A DNA stretch of 64,000 nt from Candidatus Parcubacteria bacterium (GCA_027324805.1 DAHVRZ010000001.1:2945-66944), one strand, 5' to 3'; counted from the stretch's first letter, positions 9,524-31,722 are shown. Numbers and translations: made by a program. The notes: generated by a model not told the origin, from the letters alone.

Positions 9524-9550
9524 AAAAACCGCCCCTACGGGGCGGTTTTT
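9524..9550. terminator. Bidirectional rho-independent terminator between convergent rnj and histidine phosphatase genes
   Basis: AAAAACCGCCCC-TAC-GGGGCGGTTTTT: perfect 7-bp GC stem flanked by an A-tract and a T-tract. Confidence 0.85.
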
Positions 9551-10209
9551 GTATTCTCCTCGGCGAGGTGGGCGTGGTCGTTGTAGATCCATACATTCCA
9601 CCTCGACCCTTCGCCGGATTTTTTTTCGCGGTATCGCAGGACGGTGAGTCCTGTGTTCTCCGTCTCCGACATTTTCTGGAATCTCCTGAACGCCTCGCCC
9701 GAGAGCAGATCGCCAAGCAGGATGCGCGCCGTGAGCGCGCGGAGGAAATAGCCATGGGTCACGACAAGCACCGACCGTTCCGGCCTTTCCTCGAGGAACA
9801 CCATCGCCTTTTCCGCGCGGGCCATGATGTCGTCGAAATTCTCTCCGTCCGCCACGCGCACCCCGGGCGTGTAGAGCGTCTCGTTCCACTCCCGCCAGAG
9901 CCTTGCCGCCTCTTCGTCGGTATGCGGGCTGCCGTTCACCCTTGCGGGCTTCATCCGCTCCACAAAAAGCGCCGATTCCTCCGGCCGCTTCCCCGTCGCC
10001 TTGGCGATCGCTTCCGCAGTCTCCGCGGCGCGGCGGTACGGGCTCGTTATGAACGCCTCGAAGGCGATGCTCCGCGCCCGCGCGGCGATCATCTCCGCCT
10101 GCTTCCGACCGCGGTCGCTGAGCGGCGAATCCGGCGACTGGAAGACGGGCGACACATTGTCCGCACTCTCCCCATGCCGCACGAAGTAGACTGTTTTCGC
10201 GGTGGACAT
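9535..10209 (-). CDS. Histidine phosphatase family protein (phosphoglycerate mutase-like branch)
   Basis: 224 aa. RHGE catalytic motif (VYFVRHGESADN), second motif SPYRRAAETA, C-terminal VVTHG catalytic His. Leaderless-type promoter (TGGTATGAT) just upstream. Confidence 0.85.
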   Translation of the reverse strand: MSTAKTVYFVRHGESADNVSPVFQSPDSPLSDRGRKQAEMIAARARSIAFEAFITSPYRRAAETAEAIAKATGKRPEESALFVERMKPARVNGSPHTDEEAARLWREWNETLYTPGVRVADGENFDDIMARAEKAMVFLEERPERSVLVVTHGYFLRALTARILLGDLLSGEAFRRFQKMSETENTGLTVLRYREKKSGEGSRWNVWIYNDHAHLAEENTKTAP

Positions 10210-11264: not shown

Positions 11265-14200
11265 TTAAATCTTCCTAAGGCCGATCCAGGCCTCCTGCCC
11301 TTCCATCTTTGCCGTTTCTTCGGCAAGGAATTTTTCTCCGTGTTTGTATTCGACGCGCGCGGCGCCGATCTCCGTCATGAATATCTTTTCATTGTGCACG
11401 AGGGCCTGTGCCGCTTCCGCCGGCAGTGACGCCATCGCGATGATCTTGTCCCTCGGCGAAAGTCCCGCCTTCTGGCGCAGTTCCTGGAACATGCGCACCG
11501 CTTCCCGGAGGAGGCCCTCCCGGCGAAGTTCCGGCGTGATCACAGTATCGAGCACCGGCTCCTTCGCTTTCGCGTTCACGATCACTTTTTTCACATTCAC
11601 TTCTTCCGCAAGGATCGCCTCAAGCTCTTTGCTTAATTTCACATTCACCGTGACCGAAGCGAGCGGCTGGCGAACCTTGATCCCCGCCTCCGCGCGCTTC
11701 GCGAGGCCCGCGGCCGCCGATTCCCGCACTACCGCCATTTCCGCAATTAGCTTTTTGCCTGCCGCGGGGAGTTTTGGCGCCTTGGGCCATGTTTCAAGAT
11801 GGACCGACTCCTTCATACCGCCGAGCGCGGCGTAGAGCCCTTCGCTCATGAACGGCGTGAATGGCGCCATCATTGCGACGACAGAGAGGAGGGTATGGCG
11901 AAGCGTCGCCGATGCGGCCTTATGATCCGCAGCGGTCGTCGGTTTTTGAAGACGGCGGCGCGAACGGCGGATATACCATCGGGAAAGATCATCCACGATC
12001 GCATCGAGCTCAAGCGCCGCTTCCCGGATCTCATAGCGGTCGAGTTTCGCCGTTACGGACGCCGCCGTTTCATCGAGCCGCGCGAGGATCCAGCGGTCGA
12101 GCACATTCTTCGGGTTCGCCTTCCGGCCGGCAACCGCAGGCGCGAGCTTCGCCCCCCTGTCCGCATACGTCTTCCAGAACACGAATGAGTTATAGACGAT
12201 GAGATGGGTGCGGCGGAACGCTTTTGCAATCTCGTTCTCGTCGAAATTCTTCGGCTCGCCGAACGGCGAACCGGTATAGAAGTACCAGCGGACGGCGTCC
12301 ACGCCGTATTTATCAATCACCGCAAACGGCTCCACGATATTACCCTTCGACTTCGACATTTTTTTGCCGAACTTGTCATTGATGAGACCGAACGTGATCA
12401 CATTGCGGTACGGCGCTTTGTGGCCGAGCGCGGTCGCGATCGCCATGAGCGTATAGAACCACCCGCGCGTCTGGTCCATGCCTTCGGCAATGTAATCCGC
12501 GGGATATTCGAGGCCGGACAGCGTTTTTATATTCGTCTTCGGAAGGGAGAAGGGATAATGGGCCTGCGCATAGGGCATCGCGCCGGAATCGTACCAGACG
12601 TCCGCCACCTCGCGCACACGCCTCATCGTCCCATGGGCGTTCTTTTTTGCGCACGCGGCACACGGGAATGCGATCTCGTCCACGAAAGGCCGATGGAGAT
12701 CAACTTCGCCGCTATCGTTGCGCGGCACGGTTTTCAGATGGAGTTCGCGCACATCGGCAAATCCGATGAATGCGCCTTTTTTTTCTTTGGCGCCGCGCTT
12801 CTCCATCTCTTCGATCGCACGCTTCTCGCTCCACCCTTCGGCCGTCTGGAAGAGCGCCCAGGCAGGATACTCATGAGTCACGACCAGGATGTTCTTTCCT
12901 TCATATTGCTTCTCGCAATCCTCAAGGAACTTCCATACTCGCGAACGTACGTCGCGCACCGACTCGCCTCCTTCGGGACGCTTCTCAAAGCGCGATTCGA
13001 GCGTCGGGAAGAATTCGCGGTACTTCTCGTCACGGAGACCCGTAAGCGACGGGCCAAGATGGATCTCTTCGAGCCGCTTATCGGCCGTACATTCCTTCGC
13101 CGGCACGCCGAGCTCCTTCATCGCAATCTCTGCGGTCTCGGACGTGCGCTCGATGTCGGAATGGATGATGAGGTCGATCTTCTCCCTCCTCTTCTTGAGC
13201 GCCGCCGCGAATGCCTTTGCCGACCGGGCGGCCTCTTTCTTTCCGCGCGGAGTGAGCTTGAGATATTTACGCTGGCCGGAATCGAGGATATCGAAAATGT
13301 TGCTCTCCGCCTCGCCATGGCGCATCACCCAGTAGCGGTTCTTGGAACCGCCCGCAAGCTGCGAAAGTTCGTCCATGCTCCCCACCACCTCCTTGTGACC
13401 GCACCCGGCGCATTCCCATACCGGCAGAGGCGCGCCCCAGTAGCGTTCGCGCGAGAGGTTCCAATCCTTCACTTCCCGGATCCATTCGCCGAAGCGGCCC
13501 TTCTTTACGTGGGCCGGCATCCAGTTCACGGAGGCGTTGTTCGCCTGAAGCTCTTTGCGCAGCCTGGACATTGCGATGAACCACGAGGTGCGCGCGTAAT
13601 AAAGCACCGGCGTACCGCACCGCCAGCAGAACGGATATTCGTGTGCGTACGGTTCCGTGCGGAGGAAATTACCGTGCGCTTTGAGATGCTCGAGCACCGC
13701 CTGTTCGGTCTCCTTCGCCTTGGCGTACATGCCCGCAAGCATCGGCACGTCCTTTGTGAACTTACCCTCGTCATCCACGGTATGGTGTTCCGGCAGGCCC
13801 TCCTTCTTTCCAAGCGCGTAGTCGTCCTCGCCATACATCACGGCCGTGTGCACCACGCCCGTGCCGTCGGTCGTCGTCACGAACGACGCCGGATATACCT
13901 TGTATGATTTCGGCGATCTCAATTTCTCCACATCGAAGAGCGGCTCGTATTCAAGGCCGACGAGCTGTTCGCCTTTCACCGCCCAAAACTTTCCCGCGCC
14001 TTCCAGTCCGAGACTCGCGATCCGATCCGTTGCCGCAATCAGATATTCGTCCCCGACCTCCACCGCGCGATACTCGATCTTCGGCCCGACCGCGAGCGCC
14101 ACGTTGCCCGGCAAGGTCCACGGCGTCGTCGTCCACGAAAGGATGTATATCGTATCGGAGGGCTGTATGACGTGGCTTCCGATCTTCTGCCCCGGCTTCA

Positions 14201-14882
14201 GTTTGAACTTCACATATACCGACGTATCGGTCACTTCCTGGTAGCCCTGTGCGAGCTCGTGCGACGAAAGCGCGGTTCCGCATCGGGTACACCACGGCAC
14301 CACCTTGTGGCCTTTATAGAGCAGATCGCGCTTTGCGAGCCGGGACAGGCTCCACCAGATGGATTCGATGTATTCCGGCGCGTAGGTCACGTACGCGTTC
14401 TTGAGATCCAGCCAATAACCGATGCGGCGGGTCATGCGCTCCCACTCGTCTTTATAGATCCAGACTTGCTCCTTTGCAGCCTCGTTGAACCTCTTGATGC
14501 CATATTGTTCGATGTCGCGCTTCGTTTTGAAGCCGAGCGCTTTTTCGGCAGCCATCTCGACAGGAAGGCCGTGCGTATCCCATCCCGCCCGGCGCGGAAC
14601 ATGGTATCCCTGCATGGTCTTGTAGCGAAGGACGACGTCTTTAACGACGCGGGAGAGCACGTGATGGATGCCGGGCTTGCCATTCGCATACGGAGGCCCT
14701 TCGTAAAACACGAACTCCTTCGAACCCTTCTTCTTCGCGAGGGATTTCTCGAAAATATGCCGCTCATCCCAGAATGCGAGCACTTTTTCTTCCGTACCGG
14801 GAAGATTGAATCCGTCACCGAGGAAATCGGGCGCACTTTTGGATGAAAGTGGCACTGCTTTACGTCGCTGTTTTTTGGGCAT
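11265..14882 (-). CDS. ileS: Isoleucyl-tRNA synthetase (type 2-like) carrying an inserted histidine-phosphatase domain
   Basis: 1205 aa. HHVLSR(HIGH-like)...KMSKS. CP1 editing domain present. Zn-knuckle region WECAGCG ... FPCAACAK is interrupted by about 210 aa (approx residues 513-722; nt approx 12717..13346) with an intact RHGE, SDIERTSETA and VVTHEY histidine-phosphatase signature. Confidence 0.9.
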   Translation of the reverse strand: MPKKQRRKAVPLSSKSAPDFLGDGFNLPGTEEKVLAFWDERHIFEKSLAKKKGSKEFVFYEGPPYANGKPGIHHVLSRVVKDVVLRYKTMQGYHVPRRAGWDTHGLPVEMAAEKALGFKTKRDIEQYGIKRFNEAAKEQVWIYKDEWERMTRRIGYWLDLKNAYVTYAPEYIESIWWSLSRLAKRDLLYKGHKVVPWCTRCGTALSSHELAQGYQEVTDTSVYVKFKLKPGQKIGSHVIQPSDTIYILSWTTTPWTLPGNVALAVGPKIEYRAVEVGDEYLIAATDRIASLGLEGAGKFWAVKGEQLVGLEYEPLFDVEKLRSPKSYKVYPASFVTTTDGTGVVHTAVMYGEDDYALGKKEGLPEHHTVDDEGKFTKDVPMLAGMYAKAKETEQAVLEHLKAHGNFLRTEPYAHEYPFCWRCGTPVLYYARTSWFIAMSRLRKELQANNASVNWMPAHVKKGRFGEWIREVKDWNLSRERYWGAPLPVWECAGCGHKEVVGSMDELSQLAGGSKNRYWVMRHGEAESNIFDILDSGQRKYLKLTPRGKKEAARSAKAFAAALKKRREKIDLIIHSDIERTSETAEIAMKELGVPAKECTADKRLEEIHLGPSLTGLRDEKYREFFPTLESRFEKRPEGGESVRDVRSRVWKFLEDCEKQYEGKNILVVTHEYPAWALFQTAEGWSEKRAIEEMEKRGAKEKKGAFIGFADVRELHLKTVPRNDSGEVDLHRPFVDEIAFPCAACAKKNAHGTMRRVREVADVWYDSGAMPYAQAHYPFSLPKTNIKTLSGLEYPADYIAEGMDQTRGWFYTLMAIATALGHKAPYRNVITFGLINDKFGKKMSKSKGNIVEPFAVIDKYGVDAVRWYFYTGSPFGEPKNFDENEIAKAFRRTHLIVYNSFVFWKTYADRGAKLAPAVAGRKANPKNVLDRWILARLDETAASVTAKLDRYEIREAALELDAIVDDLSRWYIRRSRRRLQKPTTAADHKAASATLRHTLLSVVAMMAPFTPFMSEGLYAALGGMKESVHLETWPKAPKLPAAGKKLIAEMAVVRESAAAGLAKRAEAGIKVRQPLASVTVNVKLSKELEAILAEEVNVKKVIVNAKAKEPVLDTVITPELRREGLLREAVRMFQELRQKAGLSPRDKIIAMASLPAEAAQALVHNEKIFMTEIGAARVEYKHGEKFLAEETAKMEGQEAWIGLRKI

Positions 14883-18798: not shown

Positions 18799-19806
18799 TT
18801 ACAGGTCTTCCGGATCGAGGATCACCCTGAGCTGGTTCAGATATGGATCAAGGATATCCCCCGAGATCACCGCGGCGATCCTGCTGCCGTCACTGTTCGC
18901 GGGAATCTTTTTCAAAAGATCGTCCGGCATCTCTTCGATGAACCGGTCGGCCCCTACTATGACCGCACCGGTACTCAGTCCGACCTTGAGGCCGTACCGA
19001 AGCGCCTGGACGGTCTTTTGATACGGCCGGTAACGGGACACTTTGACATGGTGCGTTCCCGCTTTCCAGTCGAACAATATCTGATCCGGTCCAAGCCTCT
19101 TCTCCGAACGAACCGCGGGGATCGGCTCATCGTCCTCGGTCATCACTCCGACCACGAGAGTCTCGGGGGAATGCTCTTTGCAATACTCCCGTGCGCCAAG
19201 CAAGGTTCCCGTCGTTCCCATAGAGGCAACGATTAGTCCTATTTTCATACCCACCGCTTCCGCCTGTTCGAAGATCTGGCCGATGGTGATGTCGCGGTGC
19301 GCCTGCCAGTTCACATCGTCTCCATATTGGTCGAATACGATATGATATTCCTTCTTCCCCATCTCACGGGCAAGTTGGACGCCGGTCTTTTGTCCGGCGA
19401 TCTTCCTGGTCAACACCAATTCTCCGCCGTCATCTCCGATGACCCTCCTGATCAAGACCTGCTTCTCAATAGGGGTATCTTCGGGCATGAACACGATGAT
19501 CTTCACGCCATAGGCCCGTGCAGTGGCGGCGCCCGCCAGTCCTCCACCGCCCGACGAGTTCATCACCACCGTAGTGTCCTTGGTAAAGACTCCCTCTTTT
19601 GCCCGCTCGGCGAACCATCGATAGGTGGGGACTATCTTAAAGGTGTGAAGCGCCGATTCGGGGCCCATCATCTTCAAGAGCATCCGAACCTTCTTCGTTG
19701 GGTTGCCCGCCAGTGCATAAGGAAGCTCAACACAGGACGTGGGTTCGTGCTGTGCCATGTCCAGATAGTTCTTTGTTGCATCCGGACCGATAAAGATGTT
19801 CTTCAT
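18799..19806 (-). CDS. PLP-dependent enzyme, fold type II (cysteine synthase / Trp-synthase-beta superfamily)
   Basis: 335 aa. Gly-rich phosphate-binding loop NSSGGGGLAGAATARAYG. Putative lysine-containing NPTKK segment near the N-terminus. Substrate unknown. Confidence 0.7.
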   Translation of the reverse strand: MKNIFIGPDATKNYLDMAQHEPTSCVELPYALAGNPTKKVRMLLKMMGPESALHTFKIVPTYRWFAERAKEGVFTKDTTVVMNSSGGGGLAGAATARAYGVKIIVFMPEDTPIEKQVLIRRVIGDDGGELVLTRKIAGQKTGVQLAREMGKKEYHIVFDQYGDDVNWQAHRDITIGQIFEQAEAVGMKIGLIVASMGTTGTLLGAREYCKEHSPETLVVGVMTEDDEPIPAVRSEKRLGPDQILFDWKAGTHHVKVSRYRPYQKTVQALRYGLKVGLSTGAVIVGADRFIEEMPDDLLKKIPANSDGSRIAAVISGDILDPYLNQLRVILDPEDL

Positions 19807-19888
19807 AATTATTACCTCTCTTTGAGTAGCCGGTTCGTACTAACCCCATTCTGCCCTCCGCGCCGTGGAATTGTCAATAATTTCCTGA

Positions 19889-20962
19889 TTATTGCTTCTT
19901 CCTCACGATGCAGAACGGCGTCATCTCATCGGACTGGCCGAGTGGATTATCGCGGAAAAGCTTGCCGATGAACTCTTCGGAAATGGCGCGCGACGACTTG
20001 CCGAGCGAAAAAGCGCCGCGGTAGTTCGCGTCCAAAATCACCGCCTCACATCCGAGCGTTTTTTTAATCCGCTTCGCGCTGCCGTTCGAATCGTTCGGCG
20101 CGAGCTTCACGGAATGCGCGTATTCGAGGATGAGGAACGACATGGGGCAGTCCACCGACTTTGCGCGCTTGCCGCAGATGCGGTAGAACATGCCCTTGAT
20201 GCCGAATGGCCGCGTGACGGCCGACACTGCCGCAGCGAAGATGGCGCGCGGATATCCTGCTTCGCTTATAAAGGCTTCCATGGCAATCGATGTGCCGTGT
20301 CCGAAACCGCGAAACTGTTCCGTGCCATAGTAATTCCCTACGCGCCCTCCGAGGAAGCGTGCGAGCATTGAAGGCTTCACCATACTCATATCCACCACCC
20401 GGCCCTGCGTTATCGTGAGCGCTTTTTCGCTCACATAGAGGACGTCGCCCGGTTTCACATACGGCTTCACATATTCCTCGATGATCGGCAGGATATCCGT
20501 ATCCTTTGTTGTGATGACGCGCGTCTTCACCGGAAGGCGCTCATATACCACCCCGTCCACATCGATATCGATCTGCTTTCCCGGGTTCGGAGCGAAATCG
20601 CCGGAAGGCTTACGCTCCTTGAGCGCGACAGCGTCGTCTTCGAACGAAACTTTTTCTCCGCGGAACAATGCGAAAAGCTTTTCGGCCACACTCCAGATCA
20701 TTTCATGGCTTTGCCCGATCTTCGCGCGCGCCTTGAGTAGCTCCGTCGCCTCCATCCAGAGAATATGCGCCTCGTCGATCCTCGCGTGTGCGAACGATGC
20801 CTCTGCAACGATGGTCCCGGCCGCATCGTTCTTCCCGTTATCCGCAACCGCCCTCACTGCCGCACCGCCATCTTCGCGCGGCATATATACGATCGTAAGC
20901 CCCGTCCGCTCCTTCATATCCAAGTACGCCTGCGATTGCTCCGCTATTTTTGTGTGCGCCAT
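19889..20962 (-). CDS. CofE-like protein (F420-0:gamma-glutamyl ligase family fold) with about 135-aa N-terminal domain of unknown function
   Basis: Residues about 140-357 align to CofE: GDVLYVSEKALTITQGRVVDMSMVKPS versus CofE GDVIVIAETVVSKSEGRVVDL, and GSAKRIKKTLGCEAVILDANYRG versus CofE ESAKKIREEIKKLTGKDVAVIITDTQGR. No F420 genes nearby. Confidence 0.65.
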   Translation of the reverse strand: MAHTKIAEQSQAYLDMKERTGLTIVYMPREDGGAAVRAVADNGKNDAAGTIVAEASFAHARIDEAHILWMEATELLKARAKIGQSHEMIWSVAEKLFALFRGEKVSFEDDAVALKERKPSGDFAPNPGKQIDIDVDGVVYERLPVKTRVITTKDTDILPIIEEYVKPYVKPGDVLYVSEKALTITQGRVVDMSMVKPSMLARFLGGRVGNYYGTEQFRGFGHGTSIAMEAFISEAGYPRAIFAAAVSAVTRPFGIKGMFYRICGKRAKSVDCPMSFLILEYAHSVKLAPNDSNGSAKRIKKTLGCEAVILDANYRGAFSLGKSSRAISEEFIGKLFRDNPLGQSDEMTPFCIVRKKQ

Positions 20963-21097
20963 AATAGAGGCATCATATCACGCTCCCGCGGGTCACGCAT
21001 CTTTTTCCCGCCGTAAAACATTGCTTTATTCTTTAAAATGTTTTATAATTTCTCCAGTTGCTGCCCTTAAACACAGCGGCAAACAATGGAGGAGAAA

Positions 21098-21904
21098 ATG
21101 GGATTCTTTTATATGCCAGGAGAGATGTGCATGGCCGAATTCGTTCAGCCTCGCGTCACCGGTGCAGACCTCAACTACCAGGGATCGATCACCATCGATC
21201 GGGAAGCGCTCGATGTTTCGGGCCTGCTCCCCGGCCAGATGGTCTATATCGACAACGTAGTGCGCAGGGGTCCATCATGGCGCACTTACATCGTCCCCGG
21301 CGAACCCGGGAAAGGCGAAATCATCATGAACGGGCCGCCGGCCTATCACTTCAAAAAAGGCGATCCTGTCACGATCCGCGGAAGCGCCTTCATTCCCTTC
21401 GGGGATATGCCGAGCATGGCCCATGGCCATACGAAGGTATATTTCTCCCAGGGCGAAAGGGTGCCGAATCGCGTAAAGCGCCTGGAGCATATTCCAATCC
21501 CCGCCACACACTGGCGGCAGATGTGCATCAGCAAACTCCACCGTCTTGTGATCACGGGGACTTCCCCTGAAGGACCCGAAGAGCTTGTGGTGGACGGCGA
21601 CATCCTTGATGCCGCGGGATTTCCCCCGGGGATCGAGGTGCAGTTCACCAGCTTGCGCGACGGCGTCCTTCGCCGGACGTGCGTGCAGGCAGGCCCTCGC
21701 GGAACAGGTGCCGCCGAAATCCATGGATCCGGCGCGCAGTACATCGCAGCCGGAGTGAGAGTGGTCACACTTGCGGAAGTTTTGCTTCCTTACGAGGATG
21801 CCGCAAAAGTCCACGGACCCCAGGTCGCATTCTTCGACGAATCCCGGACCGACCGCAACATCATCCGAGAAGTGAAGATTGGATGGCGGCCAGCCTCCTC
21901 TTAA
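21098..21904 (+). CDS. Tandem (duplicated) aspartate-1-decarboxylase-like protein: two PanD-like double-psi beta-barrel domains fused
   Basis: Domain 1 (QPRVTGADLNYQGSITID...WRTYIV) keeps the Gly-Ser pro-enzyme cleavage site and the Arg/Thr-Tyr residues. Domain 2 (KLHRLVITGTSPEGPEE...LDAAG...NGAAA...PQVAFFDE) keeps KLHR but has Glu in place of the pyruvoyl Ser. Start ambiguous (ATGs at 21086, 21098, 21113, 21131; SD-supported at 21098 and 21131). Confidence 0.7.
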   Translation: MGFFYMPGEMCMAEFVQPRVTGADLNYQGSITIDREALDVSGLLPGQMVYIDNVVRRGPSWRTYIVPGEPGKGEIIMNGPPAYHFKKGDPVTIRGSAFIPFGDMPSMAHGHTKVYFSQGERVPNRVKRLEHIPIPATHWRQMCISKLHRLVITGTSPEGPEELVVDGDILDAAGFPPGIEVQFTSLRDGVLRRTCVQAGPRGTGAAEIHGSGAQYIAAGVRVVTLAEVLLPYEDAAKVHGPQVAFFDESRTDRNIIREVKIGWRPASS

Positions 21905-23550: not shown

Positions 23551-24831
23551 ATGAGATTCAGCCGCAAGACAAAAAAATTGCTCGGCATTGCCGGACCAGG
23601 GGTAATCACGGGGGCCGCGGACGATGACCCGTCGGGGATCGCCACCTACTCGCAGACCGGCGCGCAATTCGGCTACGGCCAGCTTTGGACGGCGGCGTTT
23701 CTACTCCCCTTCATGACAGCGGTGCAGGAAGCGGTTGCACGTATTGGTGCAGTGACGGGCAAGGGCGTCGCCGCGATCGTCAAACAGCATTATCGAAAGG
23801 AGGTACTTTGGGGTGTTATCGCGCTCGTTCTCGTTGCGAACACGATCAATATCGGCGCCGACCTCGGCGCGATGGCGGCGGCGGCACGGCTTGTCGTTCC
23901 CGGTATCCCCTTCGCCATATTCACACTTTTCTTTACCGTAGTCATTCTTCTTCTTGAGATATTCGTCTCCTACAAACGATACGCTCGCATTCTTAAATGG
24001 CTCGCCCTCGCCCTTCTCGCCTATGTTGCGACCGCGCTCATCGTCGCGGAACCCTGGGGTACGCTCCTTCGGGCAACGTTCGTACCGCATATTGATTTCA
24101 GTTTCGCGTTCCTCTTTATCATCACCGGCGTTTTCGGTACGACGATCTCTCCATATATGTTCTTCTGGGAAGCGTCCGAAGAGGTCGAGGAGGAGGAGGA
24201 GCGAAAAATGACCCGCAAGGATGCCCCGCCGCGTCTCACAAAAGGCTTCCTCCGCAAGCTCCGCCTCGACAACTTCGTGGGCATGCTTTCCTCCGAAGTC
24301 ACCACGTGGTGCATCATTGTCGTCGGCGCGACGGTGCTCAATGCCCACGGCGTCACCAATATCGCAACCTCGGCCGATGCTGCGCGCGCACTCGAACCTC
24401 TCGTTCGGACCTTTCCCAACGCAGGCTTCATCGCAAAACTGCTTTTCTCCATCGGCATCCTCGGACTCGGCTTCCTCGCCGTTCCCGTATTGTCCGCCTC
24501 CGCATCCTATGCGGTCGCCGAGGCGATGAACTGGCGCGAAGGGCTCAACCGGAAGTTCAAACGAGCGCACGGCTTTTACGGAGTGATCACCATTGCCACG
24601 CTCATCGGACTTATGATCAACTTCGTCGGCATCGACCCCGTGAAAGCGCTTGTCTTCACCGCCGTAGCAAACGGCGTTGCCGCCGTACCGCTTATTTTCG
24701 TCATCGGAAAGATCGCCGGCGACGGCCGGATTATGGGCGAACACAAGAGCGGATGGCTTTCGAATATCTTTGTGTGGGCAACCTTCATTATTATGGGCGC
24801 TGCAGCGATCGCCATGTTCGCCACGCTCTAA
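23551..24831 (+). CDS. mntH: NRAMP-family divalent metal (Mn2+/Fe2+) transporter
   Basis: 426 aa. GPGVITGAADDDPSGIATYSQTGAQFGY is the NRAMP consensus. Extended -10 TGGTATACT lies about 9 nt upstream (near-leaderless). Confidence 0.9.
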   Translation: MRFSRKTKKLLGIAGPGVITGAADDDPSGIATYSQTGAQFGYGQLWTAAFLLPFMTAVQEAVARIGAVTGKGVAAIVKQHYRKEVLWGVIALVLVANTINIGADLGAMAAAARLVVPGIPFAIFTLFFTVVILLLEIFVSYKRYARILKWLALALLAYVATALIVAEPWGTLLRATFVPHIDFSFAFLFIITGVFGTTISPYMFFWEASEEVEEEEERKMTRKDAPPRLTKGFLRKLRLDNFVGMLSSEVTTWCIIVVGATVLNAHGVTNIATSADAARALEPLVRTFPNAGFIAKLLFSIGILGLGFLAVPVLSASASYAVAEAMNWREGLNRKFKRAHGFYGVITIATLIGLMINFVGIDPVKALVFTAVANGVAAVPLIFVIGKIAGDGRIMGEHKSGWLSNIFVWATFIIMGAAAIAMFATL

Positions 24832-30204: not shown

Positions 30205-31722
30205 TTACGCGAATCCCGGGAAAAAATCGCTCTTGATACGGAAGCGGGACACGCCCATATCCTTCAATGTTTTTTCGAACGCTTCGACCATCGCATGGGG
30301 GCCGGAGATGTAGAACGTGCGATCCCGATAATCCGGGATCTGCCTCATAATGAGGCCCGCATCGATCTTCCCTGCATACACCCCGGACGACGAAGCATTC
30401 CCGTCCGTCACGGCATACACCGTTCGCACGCCGAGCTCGGTCCGTGCCCTTTCGAGGATATCGCCATAAGCGATATCATCGGGTGCCTTGTTCGAATACA
30501 GCACTACGATATCGCGCTGTTCACCTTTGTCCAAAAGATAACGGATCATACTTCTGAACGGCGTGATGCCTATGCCTCCGGCAATGAATACAAGCTTTTT
30601 CTTTTTATTCCTCGGCAGAACAAATCCACCCGAAAGATGAGCCGCGGATATTCGGTCGCCCACCTTCATCGCCGCAAGCGTCTGTTTGAACGTGCTTGCC
30701 TTTGGATAGAACTTCACGCCGAGGCGCACGGTGCTCTCCGTCGGCGCCGACGCAAGCGTAAAGTATCGCCGATTGCCGCGATTGTCCGAACCATCGTGCG
30801 CAAGCGTCCACTCCATGTACTGACCCGGCGCGAACGAGAACCTTCTGTCAGGAGAGAACACAAAGTCGTACGCGTCATTCGCAGCTTCTTCAATGCGCTT
30901 CAGTGTAAGCATATAGCGTCCTTTAGGGCTTACGATATATGAAAAGATGTTTCCAATAAGGAGCGCGAGCTCCGGCGAGAGATAGAATCCCCCTATATTC
31001 ACATTCGGCGCAAAAAGGAATCCAACGAGTGCGCCGTACGCGATGCGCAATGGGCGATTCGGGGGCGTGGTGAGCGGCTCCGTGAGCATGATAAACGCGA
31101 AGAAAAAGAACGCCGAATGGATTATCGTCTGCACGATCGCGGTCCACGCATTCCCCTGCCCCGCGGTCACCGCGGACGTCACGAGCGCCACGAGTGCGAA
31201 GCTTGCCACAAGGTCCGTCCTCTGAATCTTGCGCACAACGAGCAATCCTCCGACAAGAACGAACGGAAGGAGCGCAAGATTGCCTCCGACCCACCACGTT
31301 GCGGCGCGGCCGATAAGCAGCGCGGAAAGTGCGGCACCGAATGCGGCGGGATTGAAAAGATGCCGCTTGCCGAGCGCAAAAAGATATTTCGATGCCATCG
31401 CCCAGACGGAAACGAAGATAAGGAATCCTATGCCGGCGGCATCGGTCGCAACGGCCGGCGGAATAATGAGCGCAAGGATGAACGCCGTGATGTATACGGA
31501 CTCGACATTCGTGACCGCATCGAACACTTTTGCAAAGATCCAATTTGCGGCGATGCATACGGCCATAATGACCGCCGCCGAGAAGACAAGCTCCGCGGGA
31601 CCGAACGGGAGGATACCGAAGAAACTGAACACAAATGCCGCTCCAAGGAGAACCTCAAGATAGTAGAGCACCAGACGATACATGGTCGTCCGATTCAGGA
31701 TATTATCGATCCATTTGGGCAT
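30205..31722 (-). CDS. Membrane flavoprotein oxidoreductase: polytopic N-terminal domain (RnfD/NqrB-like, LFNPAAF motif) fused to a ferredoxin-NADP-reductase-like FAD/NAD(P)H-binding module
   Basis: 505 aa. About 9 TM helices then RRYFTLAS (RxYS-type FAD motif) and GGIGITP (NAD(P)-binding GGxGxxP). Confidence 0.7.
   Translation of the reverse strand: MPKWIDNILNRTTMYRLVLYYLEVLLGAAFVFSFFGILPFGPAELVFSAAVIMAVCIAANWIFAKVFDAVTNVESVYITAFILALIIPPAVATDAAGIGFLIFVSVWAMASKYLFALGKRHLFNPAAFGAALSALLIGRAATWWVGGNLALLPFVLVGGLLVVRKIQRTDLVASFALVALVTSAVTAGQGNAWTAIVQTIIHSAFFFFAFIMLTEPLTTPPNRPLRIAYGALVGFLFAPNVNIGGFYLSPELALLIGNIFSYIVSPKGRYMLTLKRIEEAANDAYDFVFSPDRRFSFAPGQYMEWTLAHDGSDNRGNRRYFTLASAPTESTVRLGVKFYPKASTFKQTLAAMKVGDRISAAHLSGGFVLPRNKKKKLVFIAGGIGITPFRSMIRYLLDKGEQRDIVVLYSNKAPDDIAYGDILERARTELGVRTVYAVTDGNASSSGVYAGKIDAGLIMRQIPDYRDRTFYISGPHAMVEAFEKTLKDMGVSRFRIKSDFFPGFA

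Follow-up and report, generated by a model that had tools for sequence, protein, structure and literature searches.

We analysed a window of 64,000 nt from Candidatus Parcubacteria bacterium (GCA_027324805.1 DAHVRZ010000001.1:2945-66944), in which positions 18799-21904 carry a compact three-gene module. The original prediction described a CofE-like ligase gene and a PALP gene in the same direction and a PanD-like gene divergent from them, and all three ORFs are present as follows:

18799..19806, minus strand: PALP fold-type II PLP enzyme, 335 aa (Pfam PALP, E 4.8e-21)
19889..20602, minus strand: CofE-fold ligase domain of the CofE-like protein, aa ~121-357
20603..20962, minus strand: clade-specific N-terminal domain of the CofE-like protein, aa 1-~120
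20963..21097, no strand: divergent intergenic region between the ligase and PanD-like genes (read from the sequence)
21086..21904, plus strand: PanD-like gene, 272 aa (PF02261, E 4e-31, in two stretches)
21086..21508, plus strand: first half of the PanD-like protein, D1 (alignment of 16 tandem proteins with E. coli and M. tuberculosis PanD; TIGR00223)
21509..21904, plus strand: second half of the PanD-like protein, D2 (same 16-protein alignment; TIGR00223)

The absence of F420, pantothenate and CoA genes, first remarked for the immediate vicinity, extends throughout the 64-kb window. The called genes, which cover 9.9-64 kb, include none of these and no folate genes, nor do the ORFs of 200 aa or more in 1-11 kb, and the window likewise contains no CofC, CofD, CofG/H, FbiC, PanB, PanC or PanE.

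The PanD-like protein probably starts at the ATG at 21098 rather than at the first ATG at 21086, since a Shine-Dalgarno sequence (GGAGGAG, 21088..21094) precedes the former and the protein is also on record in a 268-aa version. The divergent spacer then measures 135 nt, as first described; starting at 21086 it would measure 123 nt. Promoter-like hexamers, TTGCTT and TATAAT with a 17-nt spacer, can be read on the plus strand, the -10 hexamer lying at 21044..21049. The pair was not called by a sigma-70 consensus scan because the -35 hexamer matches at only three of six positions, and the counts from sigma-70 and terminator scans were not above those of shuffled sequence. A permissive Rfam search of 17-24 kb detected no riboswitch or other RNA family. 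Comparison of the PanD/ligase divergent spacers of 15 loci yielded no shared operator and no Fur or Zur box; similarity in the leader is common to three close relatives only.

Linkage of the three families in Paceibacteria

Conservation of the gene neighbourhood had been set beforehand as a test of the prediction, and PanD and PALP genes do co-occur with the ligase in related genomes. The CofE-like protein has 908 relatives; among the best 120 (64-100% identity), every one with a source name comes from Patescibacteria. A scan of GTDB species genomes recovered 124 ligase relatives, the best 80 of which are from Patescibacteria, except for one 2.6-kb contig binned as Acidimicrobiales. In 83 related loci, all from Patescibacteria (class Paceibacteria), the two commonest neighbours of the ligase are PanD-like and PALP genes. 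For the 39 well-flanked loci, defined by at least 5 kb on both sides of the ligase gene, PanD lies within 10 kb of the ligase in 31 and PALP in 22, and eight have neither within this distance. ORF clustering places PALP in 49 of 84 loci. At least four gene orders and orientations of the trio are found, with flanking genes that vary between them, and PanD and the ligase are fused in frame at loci L001, L026, L028 and L036 and in proteins P0026, P0072 and P0091. Neither PanD nor PALP adjoins the more distant CofE-like proteins (41-46% identity; P0128 and P0130 checked). The arrangement is non-random and recurs across about 80 species.

The adjacency could have no functional basis and simply be synteny inherited in a region of these small genomes that rearranges slowly. 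Synteny among the closest relatives extends to the housekeeping genes ArgRS, SmpB, Nramp and AI-2E, and the eight well-flanked loci without either partner would fit this explanation. It is disfavoured and seems very improbable to us, as the trio survives changes of order and orientation while its flanks change, fusions occur in several lineages, and ORF clustering finds PanD, PALP and ligase to be one another's commonest neighbours.

None of the three proteins matched a PADLOC anti-phage defence model and no relative was found in IMG/VR viral contigs, and a defence system or viral origin was therefore rejected. A literature search on Patescibacteria or CPR in combination with PanD, F420 ligase or beta-alanine brought up no relevant paper.

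Several other genes recur around the trio. Genes for a heavy-metal P1B ATPase (TIGR01525, 442 bits), VIT1 or Nramp are present in 23 of 84 loci, and in 14 of these 23 the transporter lies less than ~160 bp from PALP or PanD; in the window, the trio is separated from an Nramp gene by 2.6 kb. Since metal-transporter genes recur beside the trio, its product may act in metal binding or buffering, although the association could also be inherited synteny within sub-lineages. The gene after PALP encodes a DsbA-like thiol oxidoreductase, both in the window and at four other loci. A PAPS-reductase gene abutting PALP in L001 was considered as a sulfur clue and set aside, being unique to that locus.

Features of the three enzymes

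The AF2 model of the PanD-like protein (pLDDT 89.5, pTM 0.86) has the double-psi beta-barrel fold, and its top Foldseek match is PanD (target TM-scores 0.85-0.89). Against the PanD equivalog TIGR00223 (cut-off 106 bits), the tandem protein scores 102.2 bits, D1 alone 59.6 and D2 alone 46.8, all below the cut-off, which single-domain relatives from L002 and P0072 pass with 123.9 and 126.4 bits. A self-processing (pyruvoyl) site is predicted in D1 at Gly33-Ser34 (21182..21187), equivalent to Gly24-Ser25 of PanD; this site is found in D1 of all 16 tandem proteins and in D2 of none. Equivalents of Tyr22, Thr57, Tyr58 and Asn72 are also kept in D1, with Lys9 replaced by Glu and His11 by Val. Conversely, D2 keeps Lys9 and His11 (K150, 21533..21535; H152, 21539..21541), is without Tyr22, Gly24 and Ser25, and has Cys for Tyr58 and His for Asn72. 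The losses in the two halves are exactly complementary in 16 of 16 tandem proteins, so that no more than half of the sites can be active, and the same pattern is seen in 15 homologue clusters of 59-92% identity. Judged by these alignments, the tandem PanD is a conserved pseudo-heterodimer.

In PanD, the other subunit contributes Lys9 and Arg54, and Pyr25, Thr57 and Tyr58 come from the same subunit, with Lys9 pairing with the substrate alpha-carboxylate (PMC3314653). Arg54, which binds the aspartate beta-carboxylate, shows strict conservation among aspartate decarboxylases (PMC3314653). At this position D1 has Ser and D2 has Leu, and Arg occurs in 0 of 54 ligase-linked PanDs examined. In the same 54 proteins Trp55 is invariant and position 56 is Arg or Gln, with Arg in about half, and Ala74-Ala75 is replaced by Pro-Pro throughout the ligase-linked clade. 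Because all 54 lack Arg54, aspartate appears doubtful as the substrate of these enzymes, and the ‘aspartate-like substrate’ of the original prediction is weakened accordingly. Aspartate is nevertheless possible for the PanDs of this clade, since the single-domain members pass the equivalog cut-off and an Arg at position 56 might substitute for Arg54.

The PALP enzyme scores 75.8 bits against Pfam PALP (gathering cut-off 35). The search for its active-site lysine, proposed at the outset, leads to the Schiff-base lysine K57 (19636..19638), which aligns with the lysine motif of CysM. It is invariant in 40 orthologues, together with S85, G86, K115, Q160, Y161, G197, R233 of the PxPGxR loop (19108..19110), D317 and Y322. 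The ‘SSG’ substrate loop reads SSGGGG, and the enzyme has a GTTGT phosphate loop. Divergence among the orthologues is rapid, with 17-49% identity to the window protein; extra domains in the longer ORFs (395-416 aa) were ruled out, as these are N-terminal start-codon over-extensions. Scores against the NCBIfam cysteine synthases (TIGR01136, 01138, 01139) and SbnA (TIGR03945) are all far under the cut-offs (101.9/344, 93.6/394, 78.9/351, 60.7/350). The family profile matches 8H4H, a PLP plus rhodanese protein, with 288 bits (E 7e-85) and the best CysM with 183 bits. By profile score, therefore, the nearest solved relative is 8H4H and not CysK, CysM or SbnA, and the SbnA/CysK likeness first proposed needs amending. 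A literature search on PDB 8H4H and 8H4Q returned nothing, and a search for an AMA synthase structure identified no entry. Fungal Fda4 (PLP plus rhodanese), which forms a C-N bond, and AMA synthase, a cysteine-synthase homologue also from fungi, both couple O-phosphoserine to the amine of an amino acid; 8H4H is a putative C-N-forming enzyme of this kind. Simple cysteine synthesis is also possible, since the enzyme keeps CysM-like loops.

If PanD and the PLP enzyme both kept their canonical roles, beta-alanine and cysteine would be formed and the novelty would lie in the ligase, which would join beta-alanine, cysteine or cysteamine-type blocks into a pantetheine/CoA-related salvage intermediate, or into a beta-alanyl or low-molecular-weight thiol compound. 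This accords with the equivalog scores of the single-domain PanDs, with the retained pyruvoyl site, Lys9, Thr57 and Tyr58, and with CysM and O-phosphoserine sulfhydrylases as second-best relatives of the PALP enzyme, which shares the PxPGxR loop with CysM. The DsbA-like gene and the PAPS-reductase gene described above would also fit, although the latter adjoins PALP in a single locus only. The loss of Arg54 from all linked PanDs, the absence of pantothenate and CoA genes from the window, and a PALP enzyme far under all cysteine-synthase cut-offs and much nearer to 8H4H lead us to consider canonical roles rather unlikely.

For the CofE-like protein, a single-sequence PDB search returned no match and fold comparison was therefore needed; it gives the CofE fold, so that the match is not spurious, the outcome on which the original prediction had been staked. 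Scores against the CofE equivalogs are below both cut-offs (TIGR01916, 14.9 bits against 180.65; NF009809, 13.6 against 274), and a profile of 37 orthologues matches CofE chains only at E 0.34-0.38. About 90 columns are invariant among the 37 sequences, and identity between module-bearing species is 65-80%. Family-wide invariants of the ligase domain include D173, Q186, D271, D311-x-N313, D338-N339-P340-x-G342-Q343, T348-P349 and R354. Acidic and Asn motifs are kept across the wider domain family; the acidic residues D271, D311 and E346 are invariant and are candidate counterparts of the CofE metal ligands. The N-terminal extension, originally put at 135 aa, is closer to 120 aa, since homology to the C-domain family sets in near aa 119-125. 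This extension is modelled as a four-stranded sheet with three helices after it, and no homologue of this domain was detected outside the clade, in agreement with the original reading of no obvious homology.

Were the protein a gamma-glutamyl ligase for a cofactor, either FolC2-like or directed at some other cofactor tail, it would share the CofE fold and would have PanD and PALP as unrelated housekeeping neighbours. Chlamydia trachomatis CT611 (FolC2), a CofE homologue that replaces FolC (PMC1971073), offers an example. We judge such a role highly unlikely here, given the score of 14.9 bits against 180.65, profile matches to CofE at E ~0.3 and a window free of folate and F420 genes; it would also leave the PanD fusions and the linkage across shuffled gene orders unexplained.

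Another possible hypothesis is macromolecule modification, in which the ligase would add an amine or amino acid to a protein C-terminus or a cell-envelope carboxylate, PanD and PALP would supply the donor, and a vasohibin-like CPR-C4 peptidase would be the eraser. Vasohibins cleave C-terminal residues off tubulin. CPR-C4 is remotely homologous to them in structure, as reported in the CPR-C4 paper, and its homologues (PDB 7OB6, E 2e-48) are found beside short-form ligase genes at 23 of the 83 loci. The unusual conservation of the ligase would also suit a macromolecular substrate, and the fusion partners of relatives of the ligase domain, namely AsnB-type amidotransferases, a polysaccharide deacetylase and PlsY, work on components of the envelope. 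However, the 64-kb window contains no CPR-C4 homologue, the link is confined to mainly short-form lineages and travels with syntenic SET and PAP2, and the characterised CofE-family enzymes all act on small cofactors, which makes this hypothesis improbable.

A proposed three-enzyme pathway

A dedicated short pathway encoded by the trio is well supported, because the three families co-occur in shuffled order, PanD and ligase are fused, the CofE-like match is genuine, the N-terminal domain is clade-specific, and the window lacks F420, CoA and pantothenate genes. In its specific form, as a single Paceibacteria-specific route to a small nitrogen-containing metabolite by PLP beta-replacement, alpha-decarboxylation and GTP-dependent amide ligation, we give this pathway an even chance. 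From the observed gene linkage, folds and residue patterns we infer its substrates, step order and product role as follows. The PLP enzyme would convert O-phosphoserine or O-acetylserine to aminoacrylate, to which a nucleophile (amine, sulfite or thiol) would add to give a beta-substituted L-alanine. From this compound, rather than from aspartate, the pyruvoyl PanD-like enzyme would strip the alpha-carboxyl group and release a primary amine. In the window decarboxylase, D1 would provide the pyruvoyl group, Thr57 and Tyr58, and D2 would provide Lys9, the role of the neighbouring subunit in canonical PanD, which would leave one active site per D1/D2 interface and a dead reciprocal site. In CofE, an acyl phosphate formed with GTP and Mn2+ is attacked by an amino-acid amine (PMC10861534). 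The CofE-like enzyme would use GTP and Mn2+ in the same manner to activate a carboxylate as acyl phosphate and join it to the decarboxylase-derived amine as an amide, and its N-terminal domain probably docks the decarboxylase. The original prediction is partly supported: its short route is upheld by linkage and fusions, but its exclusion of cofactor biosynthesis goes too far, as the product could still be cofactor-like or metal-binding.

More tentatively, and with somewhat less than even confidence, we propose that Paceibacteria make an undescribed compound of low molecular weight, such as a metal-binding, thiol or sulfonate amide. A GTP-dependent CofE-type ligase would here act on a non-cofactor substrate, coupled through its N-terminal domain or by fusion to a non-aspartate PanD-type decarboxylase that is itself fed by an 8H4H-related PLP enzyme, with the tandem PanD as a natural half-of-sites pseudo-heterodimer. 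Patescibacteria have tiny genomes and few biosynthetic pathways, and the retention of the trio in about 80 species therefore makes it likely that they need the product. Knowing its identity would provide a large CofE-superfamily branch (767 representative clusters) with its first function, would reveal a pyruvoyl enzyme of the PanD type whose substrate is not aspartate, and could inform metal handling or redox balance in these episymbionts. The tandem PanD is also a natural experiment on subunit-shared active sites and, if correctly read, shows such a site split between two duplicated domains. As the three proteins are small and soluble-looking, heterologous expression can test the question directly.

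Comparison with known systems

The enzyme kinds are known, but the proposed route as a whole has no described counterpart. With PanD (PF02261, TIGR00223) the decarboxylase shares the fold and, divided between D1 and D2, the Gly-Ser site, Tyr22, Thr57, Tyr58 and Asn72 on the one side and Lys9 and His11 on the other. It differs in its tandem duplication, the absence of Arg54, the invariant Trp55, Pro-Pro in place of Ala74-Ala75, a window without a pantothenate pathway and, in some lineages, fusion to the ligase.

The ligase is marginally similar in sequence to CofE and the FbiB N-domain (PF01996, TIGR01916), from which it is set apart by the 120-aa N-terminal domain, the invariant clade motifs FxGFGHGT and DCPMSF, the lack of F420 genes in the window, its Patescibacteria hosts, and a PanD-type decarboxylase partner to which it is sometimes fused. 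FolC2 (CT611) is a precedent for a CofE-family enzyme outside F420 biosynthesis (PMC1971073); compared by gene context alone, FolC2 clusters with folate genes and the window ligase with PanD and PALP.

Among the PLP plus rhodanese proteins of the cysteine-synthase superfamily (8H4H/8H4Q, fungal Fda4), 8H4H resembles the PALP family from end to end, down to the N-terminal ‘NxFxGPxAxxxYLDP’ segment and the family-specific K115, Q160-Y161 and R233, whereas the window enzyme is bacterial and, at 335 aa, ends with the PLP domain, without the C-terminal rhodanese domain of 8H4H and Fda4. It shares fold-type II, the catalytic lysine, the GTTGT loop and a CysM-like PxPGxR loop with CysM, O-phosphoserine sulfhydrylase and SbnA, but its 60-102 bits fall well short of the equivalog cut-offs (344-413), and SSGGG takes the place of the asparagine loop TSGNT.

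In the logic of the pathway, the module is analogous to SbnA/SbnB (staphyloferrin B), AMA and toxin A, where a beta-replacement PLP enzyme and a tailoring enzyme lead to diaminopropionate-based metal chelators of the polyamine-carboxylate kind; EDDS is likewise a diaminopropionate-type metal chelator made via a PLP enzyme and a second enzyme. The metal link of the module is circumstantial, and in place of an SbnB-type dehydrogenase and an NIS synthetase its PLP enzyme is partnered by a pyruvoyl decarboxylase and a CofE-type ligase.

The three genes and their surroundings in the window

All three open reading frames of the original prediction are present exactly where it placed them, on the strands it gave:

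18799..19806, minus strand: PALP, the fold-type II PLP enzyme (Pfam PALP, E 4.8e-21)
19889..20962, minus strand: CofE-like ligase (Pfam F420_ligase, 31.3 bits versus a cut-off of 25, aligned over aa 145-205 only)
21086..21904, plus strand: PanD-like decarboxylase (Pfam Asp_decarbox, E 4e-31, in two stretches)
Outside the trio, an Nramp metal-transporter gene lies 2.6 kb away (23551..24831, plus strand).

The predicted families held for all three proteins at the level of Pfam, and none reached an NCBIfam equivalog cut-off. PALP scored about 100 bits on the cysteine-synthase models (cut-offs 344-413) and 61 bits on the SbnA model (350), the CofE-like protein scored 15 bits on the CofE model (181), and the tandem PanD scored 102.2 bits on the PanD model (106). 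The divergent spacer, put at 135 nt, has that length from ATG 21098 and measures 123 nt from the first ATG. The second ATG, 21098, is most likely the start of the PanD-like gene, because a GGAGGAG Shine-Dalgarno sequence lies ahead of it at 21088-21094 and a recorded 268-aa version of the protein, on a 224-kb contig, matches this start. The spacer also contains a promoter-like element, TTGCTT-17-TATAAT, at 21021-21049.

On one flank lie the genes for IleRS, ArgRS, SmpB and a DsbA-like protein, and on the other those for an AI-2E permease, Nramp, pyruvate kinase and enolase; these are housekeeping genes typical for Patescibacteria. The lack of F420, pantothenate and CoA genes noted in the original prediction was confirmed among called genes at 9.9-64 kb and, between 1 and 11 kb, among ORFs of 200 aa or more. 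Elsewhere in the window, Pfam places a His_Phos_1 (PGAM-like histidine-phosphatase) domain between the catalytic-domain halves of the 1205-aa IleRS (11265..14882, minus strand), and a stand-alone His_Phos_1 gene (9535..10209, minus strand) lies two genes away. A 505-aa membrane protein (30205..31722, minus strand) combines a weakly matching RnfD/NqrB-like region with a NAD_binding_1 domain, and its family was found again in 6 related loci.

Linkage of the trio across Paceibacteria

Relatives of the CofE-like ligase number 908. The top 120 are 64-100% identical, and every named one among these is from Patescibacteria. Scanning GTDB with one genome per species gave 124 relatives; the best 80 are from Paceibacteria (Colwell-, Lipton-, Taylor-, Kaiser-, Adler-, Jorgensenbacteria and others), save one on a 2.6-kb contig binned as Acidimicrobiales (JBOGFU010000393.1, locus L070), where a short-form ligase gene is found. 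This bin is probably an error, since all other matches are Patescibacteria. With three further loci, the best 80 form a set of 83, in which 44 ligases carry the N-domain (long form) and 39 do not (short form, C-domain 53-66% identical).

Neighbors of the CofE-like ligase, at loci flanked by 5 kb or more on each side
PanD within 10 kb: long form 20/25, short form 11/14
PanD within 500 bp: long form 18/25, short form 2/14
PALP within 10 kb: long form 14/25, short form 8/14

ORF clustering detects the fast-evolving PALP with greater sensitivity and recovered this gene in 49/84 loci, and PALP, PanD and the ligase are mutually the commonest neighbors. The gene-neighborhood conservation that the original prediction named as its test is found in related Paceibacteria loci. 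Gene order varies by lineage, as do the surrounding genes, with arrangements PanD< ligase> PALP>, ligase> PanD> PALP<, PALP< ligase> PanD< and ligase> ... PALP< PanD<. Additionally, some long-form ligases carry PanD as an in-frame N-terminal fusion (loci L001, L026, L028, L036; proteins P0026, P0072, P0091). Synteny without any functional link is contradicted by both the shuffled orders and the fusions, and we consider it highly improbable. From the neighbor counts, shuffled orders and fusions, a functional link of the trio is therefore well supported. Neither PanD nor PALP adjoins distant CofE-like proteins (41-46% identity), and the module has no match in IMG/VR or among PADLOC models. The N-domain tracks tight PanD adjacency (Fisher p = 0.0008 for the 500-bp counts), a correlation which suggests that this domain docks the decarboxylase.

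Genes of three transition-metal transporter families, heavy-metal P1B ATPase (TIGR01525, 442 bits; for example L074:6986-8791), VIT1 (for example L055:9009-9554) and Nramp, were found in 23/84 loci. Fourteen of them are within about 160 bp of PALP or PanD, and the transporter family differs by lineage; the ATPase and VIT1 genes are usually this close. These neighbors hint at what the product may do, with two cautions: part of the association could reflect inherited synteny, and neither a metal-regulator site nor a riboswitch was found. The PanD/ligase spacers of L008, L012 and L018 share a leader-like element that overlaps the start of PanD: ATTGTA, about 17 nt and then TGCAAT or TACAAT. It is absent from the window and could represent an operator or a conserved 5′ UTR in one sub-lineage.

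Homologues of CPR-C4 (PDB 7OB6, E 2e-48), a vasohibin-like cysteine protease whose describing paper found gene context uninformative, adjoin the short-form ligase gene in 23/83 loci (L024, L027, L041, L052, L053, L055, L057, L058, L060, L061, L065, L066, L069, L071, L073-L076, L078, L079, L081-L083; for example L055:4717-5370). Next after the CPR-C4 gene there is usually one for a 188-aa secreted protein, and a SET-domain gene accompanies it in 22 loci. Such a neighbor would suit a ligase acting on a macromolecule, but the window contains none of these three genes, and we regard a macromolecular substrate as improbable.

Remodeled enzymes and a candidate pathway

The tandem PanD is a form common to fifteen homologue clusters (247-275 aa, 59-92% identity), and an assembly artefact was rejected on this basis. 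Its AF2 model is a single compact two-barrel unit (pLDDT 89.5, pTM 0.86), for which the top Foldseek match is PanD (target TM-scores 0.85-0.89). We aligned 16 tandem proteins with PanD from E. coli and from M. tuberculosis and compared the first (D1) and second (D2) halves.

Canonical PanD residues in the two halves of 16 tandem proteins
Lys9: D1 Glu; D2 Lys
His11: D1 Val (Cys in one); D2 His
Tyr22, Gly24, Ser25: D1 kept; D2 lost
Thr57: D1 kept; D2 kept
Tyr58: D1 kept; D2 Cys, Ser or Arg
Asn72: D1 kept; D2 His, Gln, Tyr, Arg or Leu

The canonical active site lies between two subunits, one chain supplying the pyruvoyl group, Thr57 and Tyr58 and the other Lys9 and Arg54 (PMC3314653). Because the site draws on two chains, the losses in D1 and D2 are complementary: a D1/D2 interface can, judging from the alignment, assemble one full site, and its reciprocal would be dead on both sides. 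Arg54, the residue that contacts the beta-carboxylate of aspartate and reportedly is strictly conserved (PMC3314653), is absent from all 54 ligase-linked PanDs, tandem and single-domain, which makes the aspartate-like substrate originally proposed doubtful. The same 54 proteins all have Trp55, mostly carry Arg or Gln at position 56, and usually replace Ala74-Ala75 by Pro-Pro. Since Arg54 is gone and yet the single-domain members score above the PanD HMM cut-off, the clade appears to retain the fold and pyruvoyl chemistry with a remodeled specificity pocket.

The Schiff-base lysine of PALP, which the original prediction had left unassigned, is K57, invariant in 40 orthologues together with S85, G86, K115, Q160, Y161, G197, R233, D317 and Y322. 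These orthologues diverge fast, sharing 17-49% identity with the window protein, against 65-80% for ligases from comparable genomes. The PALP membership stood, but SbnA and CysK are not the nearest relatives: the family profile is nearer to PDB 8H4H/8H4Q (288 bits, E 7e-85, across the full PLP domain) than to the best CysM (183 bits). Those entries, of about 525 aa, are annotated 'rhodanese domain-containing protein'. In fungi, the PLP enzyme Fda4, which carries a rhodanese-like domain, condenses O-phosphoserine with an amino-acid amine in an SbnA-type C-N bond formation (PMC12751119). Unlike 8H4H/8H4Q and Fda4, the window PALP lacks a rhodanese domain. As PALP keeps CysM-like loops, its nucleophile could also be sulfide, sulfite or thiosulfate.

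By sequence alone, the CofE-like assignment is marginal: a single-sequence PDB search gave no match, and a profile from 37 orthologues reached only E~0.3 against CofE chains. Residues ~121-357 fall within an extensive, uncharacterised CofE-superfamily branch of 767 representative clusters, typically stand-alone proteins of about 235 aa, with common invariants D173, Q186, D271, D311-x-N313, DNPxGQ, TP and R354. The C-domain is fused repeatedly to AsnB-type glutamine amidotransferase/asparagine synthase modules, and also to M20 peptidase, GNAT, PlsY and polysaccharide deacetylase (P0155, P0156, P0175, P0190, P0222, P0136, P0132, P0133, P0198). The N-terminal extension indeed has no sequence relative, nor a structural one, but it is a sheet-plus-helices domain of aa 1-~120 rather than 135 aa, restricted to essentially one 50%-identity cluster. 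Chlamydia CT611 offers a precedent for a FolC2-like cofactor ligase, a very unlikely identity here as it leaves the PanD and PALP partners unexplained.

One possible pathway, whose chances we judge to be about even, has three steps. PALP would form a beta-substituted L-alanine, the PanD-like enzyme would decarboxylate it to a primary amine, and the CofE-like enzyme would join this amine to a carboxylate via a GTP/Mn2+ acyl phosphate, by analogy with CofE (PMC10861534). With its Lys9 and pyruvoyl group retained, the decarboxylase would require a free alpha-amino acid, and it would have lost beta-carboxylate recognition. PanD-ligase fusions are consistent with direct hand-over of the amine. The Arg54 loss fits a different order equally well, in which the ligase would first amidate an Asp/Glu side-chain carboxylate and the decarboxylase would then act on the amide. 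If the partners instead kept their canonical roles, a new ligase would join beta-alanine and cysteine, which is unlikely given the missing Arg54, the missing CoA/pantothenate context and the PALP scores on cysteine-synthase models.

Comparison with known families

In the searchable literature we found no description of the trio, the tandem PanD or a PanD-CofE fusion. The trio is a genuine and conserved pathway lead that can be tested directly, rather than a new class of system, and the CofE-like C-domain family is an uncharacterised superfamily branch in its own right. All three proteins fall within known superfamilies, but each departs from its characterised family in at least one defining feature: the ligase from CofE in HMM score and F420 context, the tandem protein from PanD in Arg54, score and pantothenate context, and PALP from CysK, CysM and SbnA in HMM scores.
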